From: a virus
Taxonomy: Duplodnaviria; Heunggongvirae; Uroviricota; Caudoviricetes
Virus record (IMG/VR): IMGVR_UViG_3300031994_000015
Span: 1 to 30,275 of that record
Length of the DNA: 30,275 nt
Direction: 5' to 3' (one strand)
The notes beneath the pieces are model-generated. The model was not told the origin of the DNA and did not search any database. It saw only the letters and a program-made list of their open reading frames with translations. Position numbers and translations under genes: made by a program. Below are positions 13,388-29,335 of this stretch, one piece after another; position 1 is the first letter of the stretch, and every line of letters starts with the position of its first letter.

Positions 13388-13581
13388 TAATTAAAACGGC
13401 ACATGGTAGACGTAGTGGAATCCATGCTAAAGAACATATAAAATATAAACCATTCGGGATTTATATTACTAGACCAGAAATTCCACCATTTGGTAGAGGT
13501 AAATATATGAAAGGAATTTATTATCTTAATTTTAGGTGGAAACTTAAGATATTTCAAATAATGTTTAATTTTAATAAATGA
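13384..13581 (+). CDS. small basic hypothetical protein
   Basis: 65-aa ORF, ATGA overlaps at both ends. Confidence 0.7.
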   Translation: MIIKTAHGRRSGIHAKEHIKYKPFGIYITRPEIPPFGRGKYMKGIYYLNFRWKLKIFQIMFNFNK

Positions 13582-14273
13582 ATAAGCCAATTAGAAATAT
13601 ACTTTGTTATTCTCATTATGATTTTGATAATATAATGAGAGATCACTGTTGGACAGATAAACTTCCTGAAGGGGTTTCTGCAATATCAATATGTTCTCCA
13701 AATGAGGGTGATCTAGCAGAACATTGGTTTAAGAAAGAGCATAAAGATGGATTAACTAGTTCAAGAGTATTTAATCTTGATATTGATGATTTAAGTCCAT
13801 TTTGGTTTGAAAATCATGAAAGTAAATGTTATGATGATGCTTTAGATTTATTTAATGATGGAAAAATTAAAGAGTCAAACAGATATTTCAACTATCTCTA
13901 TATATCTGGTCCAAACAGAGAATGGGTGGATATTGTACATGCTCTTGACTATGAAGAAGCATTTGACCTCGCAAAATGGATTGATTTTAGAATCAAACAT
14001 GATGAAACAATTTATATACACTGCGCAGTCGGGGCTTCAAGAAGTCAAGGTGTTGTAAGATATATTGTTGATACTTATAAATATGATTATGATATTAGAT
14101 TGAATCCAAACAATCCTAATAATACATATAATCCACATGTATTGATGATGTTGAAACGTGCATATATGAATAGTGATTTTTATTCTTGTATAACACGTGA
14201 TGATGAACATGATTATTTGAATTATACAGAACCAATGAAGTTTAATAAAGATATTAAAATCAATTTAGTATGA
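13578..14273 (+). CDS. protein-tyrosine/dual-specificity phosphatase-like protein
   Basis: IHCAVGASRS = HCX5R(S/T) P-loop. Confidence 0.85.
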   Translation: MNKPIRNILCYSHYDFDNIMRDHCWTDKLPEGVSAISICSPNEGDLAEHWFKKEHKDGLTSSRVFNLDIDDLSPFWFENHESKCYDDALDLFNDGKIKESNRYFNYLYISGPNREWVDIVHALDYEEAFDLAKWIDFRIKHDETIYIHCAVGASRSQGVVRYIVDTYKYDYDIRLNPNNPNNTYNPHVLMMLKRAYMNSDFYSCITRDDEHDYLNYTEPMKFNKDIKINLV

Positions 14274-14464
14274 CAGATATAAAAGCAATTGCAGAAGAAT
14301 TAGTTAATCTAACAGCACAAGAAGTAAATGAACTTGCTATGGTTATGAAACATGATATGGATATACCAGCAGTTCGTTATGAAGAACCCAAATATAGAGA
14401 TAATAAAAATCTTACACCAAAGCAATATGGTCAAATGAAAAATTATAAACACAATAAAAGATAA
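14270..14464 (+). CDS. ribosomal protein L7/L12 N-terminal (dimerisation) domain protein, lacking the C-terminal domain
   Basis: MTDIKAIAEELVNLTAQEVNELA resembles the Bacteroidetes bL12 N-terminus; followed by an unrelated basic tail. Confidence 0.8.
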   Translation: MTDIKAIAEELVNLTAQEVNELAMVMKHDMDIPAVRYEEPKYRDNKNLTPKQYGQMKNYKHNKR

Positions 14465-14468
14465 TAAT

Positions 14469-14621
14469 ATGACTAATAAAGAATTGATGATTGCCTATAA
14501 AGTTATTTCTAAAATGATGAAAGAAAATACAAGAGCAAGTTATAACAATTCATTTGTAACTGTAAAGAATTGTTTAGCTAATAAAATTTGTGAGCAATTA
14601 GAAGATGGCCAGCAATTTTAA
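14469..14621 (+). CDS. small hypothetical protein (50 aa, MTNKELMIAYKVISK...)
   Basis: Fills gap before terminator; below ORF-track cutoff. Confidence 0.6.
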   Translation: MTNKELMIAYKVISKMMKENTRASYNNSFVTVKNCLANKICEQLEDGQQF

Positions 14622-14666
14622 TAAGGAATAACTAATACGAAAATCCTAATTATATTAAAGTAGTCG

Positions 14667-14693
14667 AAAGAAGAGATTAATTTCTCTTCTTTT
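14667..14693 (+). terminator. intrinsic terminator
   Basis: AAAGAAGAGA-loop-TCTCTTCTTT hairpin. Confidence 0.7.
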
Positions 14694-14727
14694 GTTCTAT
14701 ATTATATTATAAATAAATATTTAGAAT

Positions 14728-15786
14728 ATGGAACAGAAAGATTATTTAATCATTTATCATAGAGAAGATAATGATGGTGTATTTTCTGCTGCTATTATAG
14801 AAGATTATATCATTAATTCTCTTGGTAAAAACCTCGAAGATTTAGTATTTTTAGGTGCAGATTATAATATGCTTAATGGTTTTATTAAGGATAGTTATAA
14901 TACTCCTGAGCAATTACATAAAGATTTTAAGCATATTGTCATGACTGACATTTCATTTAATGATACCAAGTTCATGAAGAAACTTTATAAAGAGTTTGGT
15001 TCTGATTTTATATGGATTGACCATCATGCACCTATAATTCAAGAATCTATTAAGATGAATTTTGATGAGATTCCTGGAGTACGTGATACACAACGTTCAG
15101 CTATTCTTAATGCTTGGAAATTTTTATATGATCCATTTGATGAAGCTTACAAAGAAAAGAAAGTACCTGAATTACTTCGAATTTTGTCAGGTTGGGATTC
15201 TTGGTCATATGAAAGAGAAGGTTACACTAATGATTATGTAAGAAATATTAATAAAGCTGTAACTATCAAGTATCATTTGTCATTAAGTGAAGCTCGTAAA
15301 ATTGTACATGATTTGGTTAATGTATATGTTAAGAATGAGCCTTCCGGTAATATGTCAGGAGTTTTTAAGGATGGACCACTTATTGAACAACTTCATGAAT
15401 ATGGAAAACAACTTAATGATTATGATGATATAACTAATAGAAGTATTATTGAAATATCAGGAGATAAATCTTGGGAATTAGTCATTCATGATAAAGATTT
15501 AGACGAGACAAAAGTTCGTAAGTGTTGTGCAATATTCCATCAAGGTGCTACCAATTCATTAATGTTCAAATCATTACGTAATACTGATATTAGAAATGGT
15601 ATAGTGTTTAAGCATAACCCAAGTGGTACATGGACAATATCATTATATAATATTAATGATGATGATTGGTTCCACTGTGGAGAATATTGTAAAGAAACTT
15701 ATGGTGGTGGAGGACATAAAGGAGCTGCTGGTTGTCAAGTTTCCGAATCACAATTTATTAAGATTCTTAAAGCTAAGAAGATATAA
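14728..15786 (+). CDS. DHH/DHHA1 family phosphoesterase
   Basis: YHREDNDG, TD, WIDHH, GGGGHKGAAG motifs. Confidence 0.9.
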   Translation: MEQKDYLIIYHREDNDGVFSAAIIEDYIINSLGKNLEDLVFLGADYNMLNGFIKDSYNTPEQLHKDFKHIVMTDISFNDTKFMKKLYKEFGSDFIWIDHHAPIIQESIKMNFDEIPGVRDTQRSAILNAWKFLYDPFDEAYKEKKVPELLRILSGWDSWSYEREGYTNDYVRNINKAVTIKYHLSLSEARKIVHDLVNVYVKNEPSGNMSGVFKDGPLIEQLHEYGKQLNDYDDITNRSIIEISGDKSWELVIHDKDLDETKVRKCCAIFHQGATNSLMFKSLRNTDIRNGIVFKHNPSGTWTISLYNINDDDWFHCGEYCKETYGGGGHKGAAGCQVSESQFIKILKAKKI

Positions 15787-16000: not shown

Positions 16001-18565
16001 ATGATTATAATTAAACGAGATGGTACTCCCCAAGAATATTCTTTCTTGAAAATCGCGGATGCCGTACATAAAGCGTTTGCTTCGGTAGACCAAGATGTTC
16101 CAGATAAGTTTCTTGAGCAAGTAAAAGATTCAGTAGAAAAGCTAATTATCAAGAACAATGGTAATGGTACAGGTATAGAAGAAATTCAAGATTGCATTCA
16201 AAATGAGCTTATTAAGCGTAATAAGTTTGAAGTTGTAGAATCATTTATTGCATATCGTAAAGAACGTGAACGTATTCGTTTGGAAAATACCGATTTGATT
16301 AAACAAATTGAAGAAAAGCTTTATGCAACAAATGTACAAAACCAAAATGCTAATTTAGATGAAGACTCTTTTGGTGGTCGTTTAGGAGAAACTTCAGGTG
16401 TTGTCGCTAAAGATAGAGCTCTTAAGAAGATGTCTAAAATTGGTCGTAAGAATCATGAAGGAAATATGGTTTATATCCATGACTTAGACCATTGGTTAGT
16501 AGGTGATCACAACTGCTTGTCATATCCATTTGATAGTAAACTTAAAGATGGTGTTGTTACAAGACAAACTGATGTTAGAACAGCCGGTTCAATTAATACT
16601 GCTATGCAACTTGTTGCTGTTAATTTCCAATTACAATCATTACAACAATTTGGTGGTGTTGCCGCTACACATATTGACTGGTCTATGGTACCTTACGTCC
16701 GTAAATCATATAGAAAACACTATATCTTTGATTGGATTAAGAAACAACCAGAATTTTCAGATCTTGATATTTTAGGTTTAACATATGAAGAGCTTAAACA
16801 CTGGGTTGAAAATATGATTACTAAGTTTTATTTAACTACAAAACTTAAGGATGAAGATTTTACATTTGCTAATAAGAATCTTGATAATCAATTACGTCAA
16901 GAATCATTATTAGATACAAAACAAGAAACATACCAAGCGGTTGAAGGTATGTATCATAATTTAAATACTCTTCAATCACGTTCAGGTAATCAACTTCCAT
17001 TTACTTCTATAAATTATGGTACTTGTACAGAATTAGAAGGACGTATGGTAACTAAAGCCCTTCTTGAAGTTTCTATAGAAGGACTTGGTAAACATGGTGT
17101 AACATCAATATTCCCTTGTGGAATTTTTCAAATTAAAAAAGGAGTTAATTTCAAACCAGGTGATCCGAACTATGATTTGAAGCGTCTTGCATTGAAATCA
17201 ACAACTATGCGTATTTATCCTAACTATGCTAATTGTGATTGGTCAAATCAAGTAAATTGGTTTAATGCTGATAGAAAACAAAAACAAGAATATATTGAGT
17301 CATTATCTGATCATGATTATGTACAATTGACAAGTGCTATTGAAGATGAACCAAAAATATGTTTTGATAAAGTTGGTTTATATGTTGATGATAGTAAACG
17401 AATTCGTGTAGATATGACAGAACGTCCTATTGAATATTTCTCTACAATGGGTTGTCGTACTGTAAATGGTCTTGATATTAATGCATTTGATAATTTCAAG
17501 AGAAACGTACAATGCATTATGGATGGTAGATATGATGATATAGATGATGTGTTCTCAAGTGTTATTAAAGATGGTCGTGGTAATATTTGTCCTACAACAA
17601 TTATTATGCCAACACTTGCAGCTATGACTCGTAAGAAACTTGAAAAGAAATGGGAAGATTCTGGTGCTGAATATGTTAAAGGACCTGAATATGAAGAAAT
17701 GATGTTCTCTGAATTTATGAAACTTCTCGACAAGAAGATTCATGAGGCTAAAGATATGTTACTTGAACGTTTCAATCATATTTGTTCACAATCACCAAAA
17801 TCTGCTCGTTATATGTATGAAAATCATACTATGGCTGGATATCATGAAGAAGAAGGAATTATTTCAGCTCTTAAGCATGGTACAATTGTTATTGGTCAAT
17901 TAGGTATGGCCGAAACTCTTCAACTTTTATTTGGTTATGATCATACTACAAATAAAGGAATGGAATATGCTAAGAAGATTGAACAATTATTCTTAGATAG
18001 AACCTCAGAATTCAAAAAAGAATATAAACTCAATTTTGGTGTTTATTATACTCCTGCTGAATCATTATGCCATACAGCTATGAAGAAATTCCGTAAAGCA
18101 TTCCCTCAATATTGTCTTGAAAATGTAACATATTACATTAAGAAAGATGGTGAAAAGAAAGAGAAAGAATATTTTACAAACTCTATTCATGTACCAGTTT
18201 ATTATGAATGTGATCCATTTAAGAAGATTGATATTGAAAGTCAATTGACAACTTATTCAAATGCCGGTTGTATTACTTATGTAGAGTTACCAAGTATATC
18301 ATTCAATAATATAGATGGTGTTGAAAAAATAGTTGATTATGCTATTGAACATGATATCCCTTATTTTGCATTGAATTTCCCTCTTAATAGATGTGCAAGA
18401 TGTGGTGAACCTATTTATGATTCTGATTTAGAAGAATGTCCAAAATGTGGTTGCAAGAAAATAATTAGATTAGGTCGTGTAACTGGTTATCTTTCTACAA
18501 CAGTTGAACATTTTAATAAAGGTAAACAAGATGAATTTTATGATAGAGTAAAACACATGAAATAA
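16001..18565 (+). CDS. nrdD: anaerobic (class III) ribonucleoside-triphosphate reductase
   Basis: N-terminal ATP cone (IIKRDG), YIHDLD, TMGCRT, YYTPAESL, C-terminal CxxC..CxxC and RVTGYL glycyl-radical motif. Confidence 0.96.
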   Translation: MIIIKRDGTPQEYSFLKIADAVHKAFASVDQDVPDKFLEQVKDSVEKLIIKNNGNGTGIEEIQDCIQNELIKRNKFEVVESFIAYRKERERIRLENTDLIKQIEEKLYATNVQNQNANLDEDSFGGRLGETSGVVAKDRALKKMSKIGRKNHEGNMVYIHDLDHWLVGDHNCLSYPFDSKLKDGVVTRQTDVRTAGSINTAMQLVAVNFQLQSLQQFGGVAATHIDWSMVPYVRKSYRKHYIFDWIKKQPEFSDLDILGLTYEELKHWVENMITKFYLTTKLKDEDFTFANKNLDNQLRQESLLDTKQETYQAVEGMYHNLNTLQSRSGNQLPFTSINYGTCTELEGRMVTKALLEVSIEGLGKHGVTSIFPCGIFQIKKGVNFKPGDPNYDLKRLALKSTTMRIYPNYANCDWSNQVNWFNADRKQKQEYIESLSDHDYVQLTSAIEDEPKICFDKVGLYVDDSKRIRVDMTERPIEYFSTMGCRTVNGLDINAFDNFKRNVQCIMDGRYDDIDDVFSSVIKDGRGNICPTTIIMPTLAAMTRKKLEKKWEDSGAEYVKGPEYEEMMFSEFMKLLDKKIHEAKDMLLERFNHICSQSPKSARYMYENHTMAGYHEEEGIISALKHGTIVIGQLGMAETLQLLFGYDHTTNKGMEYAKKIEQLFLDRTSEFKKEYKLNFGVYYTPAESLCHTAMKKFRKAFPQYCLENVTYYIKKDGEKKEKEYFTNSIHVPVYYECDPFKKIDIESQLTTYSNAGCITYVELPSISFNNIDGVEKIVDYAIEHDIPYFALNFPLNRCARCGEPIYDSDLEECPKCGCKKIIRLGRVTGYLSTTVEHFNKGKQDEFYDRVKHMK

Positions 18566-18583
18566 TTTATCTATTTTATATTT

Positions 18584-18865
18584 ATGAGTAGATCTATTGT
18601 TTCAAGAAGACATAAAAATGCTGTTATCATGAAATTATGGGGTGGAGACTCCGATAAAAAAGATAAACAAAAAGCAAATAGATCTTTTAGACGTCTATCT
18701 CGTATGGACGCTAAAAGATCTACTTTATTAGAAGAAGATGCATTTAAGTATTATGATATGAAAGAAATATCAGATACATGGTCATTTAGATCTGATGGTT
18801 TATCTCATTACTGGGATATATCGAATTATGATAAAGAAGAATTTAATAGGTTAAAAAGCAAATGA
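18584..18865 (+). CDS. basic hypothetical protein
   Basis: 93-aa Arg/Lys-rich ORF. Confidence 0.75.
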   Translation: MSRSIVSRRHKNAVIMKLWGGDSDKKDKQKANRSFRRLSRMDAKRSTLLEEDAFKYYDMKEISDTWSFRSDGLSHYWDISNYDKEEFNRLKSK

Positions 18866-19014
18866 TAGTATATAATAAGAAAACAAATAAACTTGAAGCT
18901 TCCGGTCCTGGAGGATATAATGGTTTACCATTTGATAATGGTTGCGGAGGTATAGTTATTTGTTTTATTTTACTAATTTTAATGTTGATAGGAATAAAAT
19001 ATAATTTAATTTAG
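18862..19014 (+). CDS. small membrane protein (50 aa)
   Basis: ATGA overlap with upstream gene; C-terminal hydrophobic helix; ends in TAG 1 nt before nrdG ATG. Confidence 0.6.
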   Translation: MIVYNKKTNKLEASGPGGYNGLPFDNGCGGIVICFILLILMLIGIKYNLI

Positions 19015-19015
19015 C

Positions 19016-19516
19016 ATGCTTAGAATAGTAGATATAACTGCACCAGATATAAATAATGGAAATGGATTAAGAGTAACTTTATGGGTTGCTGGATGTAATC
19101 ATAGATGTAAAGGATGTCATAATGCTTGGACATGGAAATATGAACAAGGTAGAGTTTTTTCTGAAGAGCAAAATAAGATATTTGAAGAACTATCAGAATG
19201 GTTAGATAGAGATTATATAGAAGGATTAACATTATCTGGTGGAGATCCGTTGGCTCAAGATAACGATGGTCTTTGTGAACTTTATTCAATCATTAAATGG
19301 TTTAAAGAAAAATACCCTACAAAAAATATTTGGCTTTATACTGGATATACTAAAGAAGAAATTGATAGTATGAATGATTATATCTTACATAAAATAGTTG
19401 ATTCTATCAATGTTTTAGTAGATGGTCCTTATATAGAAGAAAAAAGAGATATCGCCCATACTCCATTTAGAGGAAGTACTAATCAAAGGTTAATTTACAT
19501 AAATAATCAAAAATAA
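19016..19516 (+). CDS. nrdG: anaerobic ribonucleotide reductase activating protein (radical SAM)
   Basis: GCNHRCKGCHN CX3CX2C, LSGGDP, WLYTGY, DG.Y, FRGSTNQR. Confidence 0.96.
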   Translation: MLRIVDITAPDINNGNGLRVTLWVAGCNHRCKGCHNAWTWKYEQGRVFSEEQNKIFEELSEWLDRDYIEGLTLSGGDPLAQDNDGLCELYSIIKWFKEKYPTKNIWLYTGYTKEEIDSMNDYILHKIVDSINVLVDGPYIEEKRDIAHTPFRGSTNQRLIYINNQK

Positions 19517-28170: not shown

Positions 28171-28242
28171 GCCCCGGTAGTTCAACGGATAGAACAGGAG
28201 TCTTCTAAACTTCTGATTTGGGTTCGATTCCCAACTGGGGTA
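28171..28242 (+). tRNA. tRNA-Arg(UCU)
   Basis: Cloverleaf; anticodon arm GGAGT-CT TCT AA-ACTTC; T loop TTCGATT; no encoded CCA. Confidence 0.9.
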
Positions 28243-28265
28243 CAATTTGATAAACTAACACATTT

Positions 28266-28339
28266 GGCCCAGTAGCTCAATGGATTAGAGCACTTGTCTA
28301 CGAAGCATGGGGTTGTAGGTTCGAGTCCTACCTGGGTCA
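28266..28339 (+). tRNA. tRNA-Arg(ACG)
   Basis: Cloverleaf; anticodon arm CTTGT-CT ACG AA-GCATG (one mismatch); T loop TTCGAGT. Confidence 0.85.
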
Positions 28340-28340
28340 C

Positions 28341-28520
28341 AAATAGTTGGGATGTAGGCTTGGAAGCAGCCATCATCTAAGGAACAAAAAGATATGATTA
28401 AAGTAAGTGGTTTAATAAACTCCGATGGTATGAATTTGGAAACGCGTCACCTTAATTGGGAACTGTCGGAAACGATTTTATCAATGAAATAACATTTGCG
28501 TAACAGCGCACCAACTATTT
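28341..28520 (+). ncRNA. 23S rRNA L11-binding domain (H43-H44, GTPase-associated centre) mimic with 112-nt insert
   Basis: GGATGTAGGCTTGGAAGCAGCCATCATCTAAGGAA...TGCGTAACAGCGCAC aligns to 23S nt ~1055-1104; closed by perfect 10-bp stem AAATAGTTGG/CCAACTATTT. Confidence 0.85.
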
Positions 28521-28523
28521 AAT

Positions 28524-28595
28524 GCCCCGCTAGTTCAATGGATAGAATAAGTGACTACGGATCATTTGATGAGCGTTCGAATCGTTCGTGGGGTA
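28524..28595 (+). tRNA. tRNA-Arg(ACG)
   Basis: Cloverleaf; anticodon arm AGTGA-CT ACG GA-TCATT; T loop TTCGAAT. Confidence 0.9.
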
Positions 28596-28615
28596 CAAAT
28601 TGAGAATGCCAAAAT

Positions 28616-28689
28616 ATTCTTGTAGTTTAATGGTAAAACGCTTGGGATCGATCATTGAAGAAATACGAGTTCGAATCTCGCGCAGGATA
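28616..28689 (+). other. degenerate tRNA-like element (possible TCG anticodon) nested in a larger stem
   Basis: Good D arm (GTTT-AATGGT-AAAAC) and T arm (CGAG-TTCGAAT-CTCG); imperfect acceptor and anticodon arms. Confidence 0.55.
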
Positions 28690-28834
28690 AAGTAGGTTAC
28701 TTGCAAGGTTCTCAATACTCCCATTGGAATAGTAAGTGTACAATTTCTATCTAATGGCCAAGTTAAATGGTTGTATGTATTGGGGTTGGTGCATACGTAA
28801 AATTAATTGATGTAAATCATACAGCAACCACCAT

Positions 28835-28909
28835 GGCCGTGTGGCTCGAAATGAATTAGGCACCTCTCTTCTAAAGAGGATGATGCGGGTTTGAATCCTG
28901 TCACGGTCA
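28835..28909 (+). tRNA. tRNA-Arg(UCU)
   Basis: Anticodon arm CCTCT-CT TCT AA-AGAGG; acceptor GGCCGTG/CACGGTC; atypical D loop and TTTGAAT T loop. Confidence 0.85.
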
Positions 28910-28912
28910 CAA

Positions 28913-29039
28913 AAACTAATACCTTAGTACGATCAATAAATTGGAATACTACGTAGTTAGCTAATCTTATAACGATACATAATAAAGAGTATTAAGCGGA
29001 GTATTTTGGGTGAAGAATCGGAATTCCCAATATTAGTTT
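28913..29039 (+). ncRNA. putative structured RNA with AGUA/GAA (sarcin-ricin/loop E-type) motif
   Basis: 9-bp closing stem AAACTAATA/TATTAGTTT fills the whole inter-tRNA gap; AGTA-CGAT...ATCG-GAA. Confidence 0.45.
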
Positions 29040-29045
29040 ATTTAT

Positions 29046-29228
29046 GGGGATGTAGCTCAGAACTTGGACAGAGCGCGATAAAACGAATGTCGTGGTGGAA
29101 AATGTCTTGAAGGAGAAATCCAGGAGTTAAGTTTGCGGAAGCACCGAAAATGATAGGAATATTAAGTAGGGAAGCGCGTTTTATGTACCACCTTAAACAT
29201 AGCGTGGGTTCGAATCCCATCATCCCTA
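29046..29228 (+). ncRNA. tRNA-like RNA with anticodon arm replaced by a ~130-nt domain
   Basis: Acceptor GGGGATG/CATCCCT, D arm GCTC/GAGC, T arm GTGGG-TTCGAAT-CCCAT; 129 nt between D and T arms. Confidence 0.75.
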
Positions 29229-29233
29229 CATAT

Positions 29234-29305
29234 GCTCTCATAGTTCAAAGGAAAGAATACGAGTTTCCTAAACTTGAGATGTAGGTTCGAATCCTACTGG
29301 GAGTA
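29234..29305 (+). tRNA. tRNA-Arg(CCU)
   Basis: Cloverleaf; anticodon arm CGAGT-TT CCT AA-ACTTG; T arm GTAGG-TTCGAAT-CCTAC. Confidence 0.9.
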
Positions 29306-29335
29306 CTGATTTATTAACTTAAAATTTGATAATAT

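Follow-up and report, generated by a model that had tools for sequence, protein, structure and literature searches.

Archaeal and eukaryotic P1/P2 proteins (aP1) combine an N-terminal dimerisation and uL10-docking domain with a flexible linker and a short, conserved C-terminal binding peptide. It is also known from older biochemistry that N-terminal fragments of L7/L12 bind cores without supporting factor-dependent GTPase activity. In E. coli, the N-terminal domain (NTD) of bL12 (residues 1–37) dimerises as a helical hairpin and the C-terminal domain (CTD) binds translational GTPases; uL10 takes up the bL12 dimers at neighbouring sites close to its C-terminus, and the loss of one dimer slows both IF2-dependent subunit joining and EF-G steps (PMC3299993). 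Ribosomal proteins encoded by viruses are mostly exchangeable ones, bL12 among these, that can enter ribosomes, and the viral proteins described by Mizuno et al. in 2019 carry a Ribosomal_L12 CTD with the residues that contact uL11, EF-G, and EF-Tu (PMC6375957).

We used host bL12 as a tblastn query against 50,697 phage records. Phages of 595–735 kb gave full-length copies; the CTD-only pieces came from Streptomyces phages and a crAss-like phage, and there were bacterial contaminants as well. No match to the NTD alone was detected in these records, and a full-text search of the literature returned no description of an NTD-only form. The sole record labelled as phage that matched the NTD (MT836236.1, "Bacteriophage sp.", L001 in our set) looks like a misclassified Prevotella-like bacterial contig, with rplA-rplJ-rplL-rpoB and a full-length bL12.

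The window analysed here, 30,275 nucleotides long, is the start of a linear viral record of 158 kb (29% GC; CheckV completeness 56%). It encodes a 64-aa protein, which we call L12N, that resembles bL12 only in the NTD. Phage homologues of ribosomal proteins are already known; what is new here, to judge from the sequence, is the combination of an NTD-only bL12 docking foot with a phage-specific peptide. L12N is the opposite of the stalk pieces reported so far, which carry the factor-binding head. The features of the locus are as follows.

13578–14273, + strand: Cys-based phosphatase of the DSP/PTP fold, 231 aa (DSPc match, invariant HCAVGASRSQG loop, structural matches)
14270–14464, + strand: L12N, whole coding sequence from ATG to TAA, 64 aa; the family comprises 30 clusters of 61–73 aa
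14270–14365, + strand: L12N residues 1–32, predicted bL12 dimerisation and uL10-docking NTD (PF16320, hhalign, AF2 helices, nucleotide identity to rplL)
14366–14461, + strand: L12N residues 33–64, family-specific basic Tyr/Lys tail (invariant positions, dN/dS, tail-profile search)
14469–14621, + strand: downstream 50-aa ORF, last gene of the unit (homologues in L009, L014, and L097)
14665–14694, + strand: terminator-like hairpin of 12 pairs with a T-run, closing the phosphatase-L12N-ORF50 unit
2140–2331, + strand: IF-1 (TIGR00008, 100.8 bits; PF01176, 87.6 bits; both above cut-off)

Residues 1–32 are a genuine bL12 NTD, with a resemblance that far exceeds chance. As a single sequence, L12N matched the Pfam model Ribosomal_L12_N (PF16320) over residues 4–34 with an E-value of 0.0045; its 17.1 bits fall short of the gathering score of 25 bits. 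All 30 of 30 family members matched the same model (best E-value 3.1e-7), and alignment of the family with 23 Bacteroidota bL12 sequences using hhalign gave a probability of 98%, an E-value of 3.1e-13, and 75% identity over exactly residues 1–32 of both. The first 15 residues are identical to those of some cellular bL12 proteins of 125–126 aa, one of which is encoded in a canonical tuf-nusG-rplKAJL-rpoBC operon. Sequence-profile searches of the PDB returned only weak matches, to NTD chains of T. maritima L12 (E-value about 0.7).

Aligned with cellular bL12, the family retains the whole hydrophobic pattern of the two-helix NTD (I4, I7, A8, L11, V12, L14, V19, L22, A23, V25, M/L26, M/I/F30, and I32 in L12N). 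An AF2 monomer model, of moderate confidence (pLDDT 69), places helices at residues 4–12 and 16–29, as expected for the NTD hairpin; a Foldseek search of the PDB with the 64-aa model gave no match, as expected at such a small size. The NTD has a net charge of -5.4. Relative to host bL12, the latter half of helix 2 carries systematic substitutions (T24M, D28H, Y30M/I, and G31D), which could alter partner specificity.

The sequence of the NTD also points to a host. Among 80 Bacteroidota rplL loci, the form D-I/V-K-A-I-A-E-E-L was almost confined to records with Prevotella, Prevotellaceae, Paraprevotella, or Bacteroidaceae in the title, apart from a few bins labelled otherwise, and every record titled Flavobacterium or Chryseobacterium has F-A-E-Q-L or L-A-E-T-L instead. 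The IAEEL signature is therefore the Prevotellaceae form, in agreement with a Prevotella host. It should also be noted that five bins labelled Bifidobacteriaceae, Clostridia, Oscillospiraceae, or Rhizobium (L016, L022, L047, L051, and L084) carry a Prevotella- or Bacteroidota-like rplJ-rplL, probably through contamination or mislabelling. At the nucleotide level, L12N and host rplL are identical at 54 of the first 69 positions (78%) and at 14 of the following 27 (52%), a drop that marks the fusion point. The GC content of the gene is phage-like and fully ameliorated (28% vs 53% for host rplL). Taken together, the comparisons indicate that residues 1–32 derive from a Prevotellaceae bL12, and the gene looks like an old capture of the first 70–95 nt or so of rplL joined to other sequence.

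Homology ends at residue 32 and the protein itself at residue 64, and no match to the factor-binding CTD (PF00542) was found in L12N. The Ala/Gly-rich hinge segment of cellular bL12, EPAAAAVAVAAGPAA, is likewise absent from the alignment, with PAVRYEEPKY... in its place. Lacking two defining features of bL12, hinge and CTD, L12N is on sequence grounds best described as a homologue of the bL12 NTD rather than as a bL12. The first-pass annotation, made from the DNA letters and their translations, had read residues 1 to about 32 as bL12-like, had seen neither an Ala-rich hinge nor a CTD, and had proposed a search with the Ribosomal_L12_N model; the family alignment and the Pfam results above bear out all of this, with the reservation that the single-sequence match lies below the gathering score.

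In place of the hinge and CTD, L12N carries a tail of 32 residues (33–64) with a charge of +6. The tail contains the motif Y-E-E-P-K-Y...[ST]-P-K-[QE]-Y-G-Q followed by a basic end, and the AF2 model predicts a helix at residues 50–63 with Tyr, Met, and Tyr on one face. Across the 30 clusters, Y37, N45, K51, Y53, and G54 are invariant, and P33, Y42, P50, and Q55 are nearly so. The family is intact in frame in about 30 clusters, down to 61% identity, with conserved length and stop position. Pooled pairwise dN/dS (Nei-Gojobori) over seven distinct, related coding sequences gave rough values of 0.21 for the NTD, 0.29 for residues 33–55, and 0.27 for the end. Both halves of L12N are clearly under purifying selection.

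The source of the tail was sought at several levels. When 1.84 billion representative proteins were searched with a tail-only profile, six matched, all of them members of the L12N family (62–68 aa) with the tail in the same position. No similarity to the tail was detected in any frame of the host rplKAJL-rpoB locus, nor elsewhere in the 158-kb phage contig, where the tail motif occurs in L12N only. In five fetched loci of a branch of the family that we call clade B, an ORF of 83–84 aa encoding a helical protein begins inside the Y-G-Q codons of L12N. The dual-coding overlap is 38 nt, or 31 nt in L012. The ORFs of this type are:

L004:805–1059, 84-aa-type ORF, clade B
L005:5152–5406, 84-aa-type ORF, clade B
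L010:2390–2641, 84-aa-type ORF, clade B
L012:1271–1507, 84-aa-type ORF, clade B, 78 aa, overlap 31 nt
L095:3512–3766, 84-aa-type ORF, clade B

The 84-aa protein ends in ...E-H-P-E-W-F-E-T-T-S-P-K-E-Y-G-M-K-L-M-K-x-K-K-Y-R-K. Comparison of this C-terminus with the tail of L12N by hhalign gave a short alignment of 17 columns (P 3e-4, probability 40%). The core common to both, E-x-P-x-[YW]...[ST]-P-K-[QE]-Y-G, lies at the same distance from the stop codon in two adjacent genes, and we take it to be a portable C-terminal peptide module, which is probable but not proven. If the module is portable, the N-terminal parts of L12N and of the 84-aa protein would be targeting domains. Two other accounts of this region were rejected. 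The overlapping gene does not explain the conservation of the tail, as the overlap is found only in clade B, whereas clade A preserves the YGQ core too. Read-through of a TAG stop codon in clade B was dismissed because a relative has TAA at the same position.

The ATG of L12N overlaps the TGA of the upstream 231-aa ORF as ATGA. The upstream protein matched Pfam DSPc with an E-value of 1.9e-4, below the cut-off, and a structural model of it (pLDDT 78) gave top VIA-align matches that are all Cys-based PTP/DSP folds, with modest Z-scores of 5–6.6; Foldseek returned nothing for the model at E<=0.001. The protein is best called a DSP-fold Cys-phosphatase. A phosphatase of 225–234 aa lies upstream of L12N in 12 of the 12 fetched loci that carry L12N, with either the 4-nt overlap or an ORF of 35–49 aa between the two genes. 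However, the phosphatase family comprises more than 245 clusters, in Lak-like phages, compared with about 30 for L12N, and it occurs without L12N in L096, L097, and published Lak genomes, so the pairing is one-sided. A frameshift fusion of phosphatase and L12N can be rejected because, in the frame of L12N, a TAA precedes the ATG by five codons and because relatives have an intervening ORF. No family match was found for the 50-aa ORF downstream of L12N. The search for terminator-like hairpins found two, compared with 0.5 expected in shuffled sequences.

These observations also bear on what had been said of the gene before any comparison was made. Its start and stop codons were described as intact, and the ATG, the TAA, and the 64-aa translation are present as quoted. 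The argument that it is not a pseudogene holds, and a pseudogene is now excluded, given 30 clusters and a pooled dN/dS of roughly 0.2–0.3 in both halves, and the conservation and selection of the tail, which had been put forward as things to check, are now apparent. The proposed coupling to the phosphatase stands only in part: the gene pair is conserved, but the ATGA overlap is not universal, since several relatives have the small ORF in between. The role proposed for the protein, a dominant-negative or adaptor subunit of the stalk, is plausible from homology.

At the DNA level, the record resembles only Prevotella Lak megaphages, to which parts of the DHH gene are about 67% identical. The same protein is encoded on contigs of up to 213 kb, and a close relative on a 465-kb contig. 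A search for related loci among viral contigs confirmed no relative. Among published Lak-A/B/C genomes, no match to L12N was found at E<=1 by tblastn of the phage collection; these genomes carry a shorter phosphatase homologue that is 30–33% identical and, in Lak-A1, is followed by a ClpP-like ORF. Since Lak-A/B/C have a distant phosphatase homologue but no L12N, this phage represents a divergent lineage related to Lak. The 158-kb contig shows no sign of TAG recoding; code 11 already gives it a coding density of about 0.9.

Within the window, neighbouring genes encode IF-1, a DNA methylase, two metallophosphoesterases, a gp32-like protein, a DHH/DHHA1 phosphoesterase, NrdD, a radical-SAM activase, a Nudix protein, and a cytidylyltransferase-like protein, and the tRNA array is all-arginine. 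These functions indicate an early or metabolic region rather than a structural one. The DHH/DHHA1 phosphoesterase (14728–15786) is followed by NrdD and the radical-SAM activase (16001–19516), and the same order is seen in relatives. In related phages (L005:5838–8289; also L006, L007, L010, and L095), genes for an Ocnus/Janus-like protein (PF05005, 26.7 bits), a 573-aa TROVE/Ro60 and vWA protein, and IF-1 lie 1–3 kb downstream of L12N.

The tRNA array has features of its own. Five tRNA genes lie at 28171–29306, all for arginine (TCT twice, ACG twice, and CCT), and a sixth tRNA-like match at 28616–28689 falls just below the Rfam cut-off. A weak match to YrlA, a Y-RNA-like family in Rfam, was found at 28214–28291 (26 bits vs a cut-off of 69). 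Outside the window, at 35690–36078 of the phage contig, ARAGORN predicted a tmRNA gene with the tag ANDELVDEAWLDSWEYRMAA. Between the tRNA genes, the RNA at 28341–28520 shares a 24-nt match (96%) and a collinear 11-nt match with the 23S gene of Prevotella histicola, in the H43/44 (uL11-binding) region; the two matches lie about 112 nt apart in the phage RNA. No match to this RNA was found in Rfam. The resemblance to 23S H43/44 would fit a stalk-directed theme.

On balance, we lean towards L12N being a phage mimic of the docking end of bL12 that docks on host uL10 and re-tunes the factor-recruiting stalk. As L12N copies only the docking end and swaps the factor-recruiting part for a basic peptide, it probably alters the factor-binding stalk of the host ribosome. 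The presence of IF-1 and of the RNA with 23S H43/44 matches in the same window is in keeping with this reading. The NTD would form homodimers, or heterodimers with host bL12, and occupy bL12 sites on helix alpha-8 of host uL10. Each incorporated copy would leave one CTD fewer to recruit IF2, EF-Tu, EF-G, or RF3, and would place the basic tail next to the GTPase-associated centre in its stead. Because an incorporated L12N puts the tail where the CTD was, the tail would be the effector part. It may add affinity through contacts with rRNA or an acidic stalk protein; alternatively, it may be put on display as a peptide for a partner from phage or host, or for the phage RNA at 28341–28520. The overall result, during infection, would be that factor recruitment by the stalk is re-tuned or throttled. 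A complex prediction with residues 100–172 of host uL10 and two copies of L12N scored 0.09 against a mark of 0.32, in a run made without controls, and speaks neither for nor against binding. One point against docking is that a phage would be weakening translation that it needs itself.

A bolder version seems to us unlikely. Here, L12N would be one component of a phage programme for rebuilding the GTPase-associated centre, turning the stalk into a P-stalk-like platform for peptide display. The module that L12N shares with the 84-aa protein would bind a specific phage partner or RNA (e.g. that at 28341–28520), and ribosomes would be biased towards phage translation rather than simply inhibited.

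The same homology of the NTD that argues for docking is also consistent with L12N acting off the ribosome. In E. coli, the uL10-bL12 complex autoregulates translation of rplJL. L12N might pair with freshly synthesised host bL12 or capture uL10 that is still free, and thereby block stalk assembly or alter uL10-bL12 autoregulation. Dimerisation of bL12 is strong both on the ribosome and in solution (PMC3299993), and the systematic changes at residues 24–31 could favour particular pairings. However, a bare NTD would suffice for sequestration, and the strongly conserved basic tail would be left unexplained; we therefore regard this account as unlikely. We find it similarly improbable that the NTD has been exapted to do no more than dimerise the tail, with a target away from the ribosome such as a nucleic acid, a phage protein, or the adjacent phosphatase. 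Since an unrelated helical protein of 84 aa bears the tail motif too, the motif can work without an L12 NTD, the bipolar charge of the protein (-5.4 in the NTD vs +6 in the tail) would suit such a role, and the pairing with a Cys-phosphatase is conserved. Yet the NTD is still 75% identical to the host protein and keeps a Prevotellaceae-specific signature, which is more than a generic dimeriser would need and hints that it is still being matched to host uL10 or bL12, and the phosphatase is widespread without L12N.

The phosphatase enters differently if L12N, once docked on the stalk, uses its tail to keep the co-translated DSP-fold enzyme near the factor-binding site, for example to dephosphorylate translation factors. 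Fixed gene order in all of the fetched loci, with the overlap or a single small ORF between the genes, and an invariant active-site loop would fit a tether of this kind. Its appeal is limited by the excess of phosphatase clusters over L12N clusters and by the phosphatases that occur without L12N in L096, L097, and published Lak, and gene adjacency alone is weak evidence; we rate it as quite unlikely. Finally, the confinement of the rplL resemblance to the first 96 nt or so might suggest that the gene is a non-functional remnant of a captured rplL 5' end. This is effectively refuted, and very improbable in our estimate, because the frame is intact in about 30 clusters to 61% identity, with purifying selection in both halves, conserved length and stop, and fully ameliorated GC content.

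If L12N docks on uL10, as we favour, selection would have produced a natural tool with which the stalk can be edited in copy number and composition, and one that could readily serve to attach peptides to bacterial ribosomes. At 64 aa and with a clear host partner, it offers a testable entry to translation takeover by megaphages of a dominant gut and rumen genus.

Compared with Prevotellaceae bL12, L12N is 75% identical over residues 1–32 and would share the two-helix, dimerising, uL10-docking NTD, but it is 64 aa long rather than about 125, has a basic tail in place of the hinge and the PF00542 CTD, and is encoded in an early-type phage region rather than an rplJL operon. Like the virus-encoded proteins with bL12 domains (Mizuno et al. 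2019, PMC6375957; Al-Shayeb et al. 2020, PMC7162821), it is a phage-encoded piece of the stalk, and those proteins have been proposed to replace or supplement host copies; unlike L12N, which is the reverse, they match the CTD or are full-length. A functional likeness is to E. coli ribosomes with a single bL12 dimer (strain JE105, PMC3299993), in which fewer CTDs lower the rates of IF2- and EF-G-dependent steps. Both these ribosomes and the N-terminal fragments of L7/L12 made in the laboratory are artificial and add no peptide, whereas L12N is a natural gene with a selected tail. The layout of L12N, with a docking dimer, a linker, and a short conserved C-terminal peptide, is analogous to that of P1/P2 (aP1). 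This is an analogy only: the two have no sequence relationship, and the P tail is acidic and hydrophobic, whereas that of L12N is basic and aromatic.
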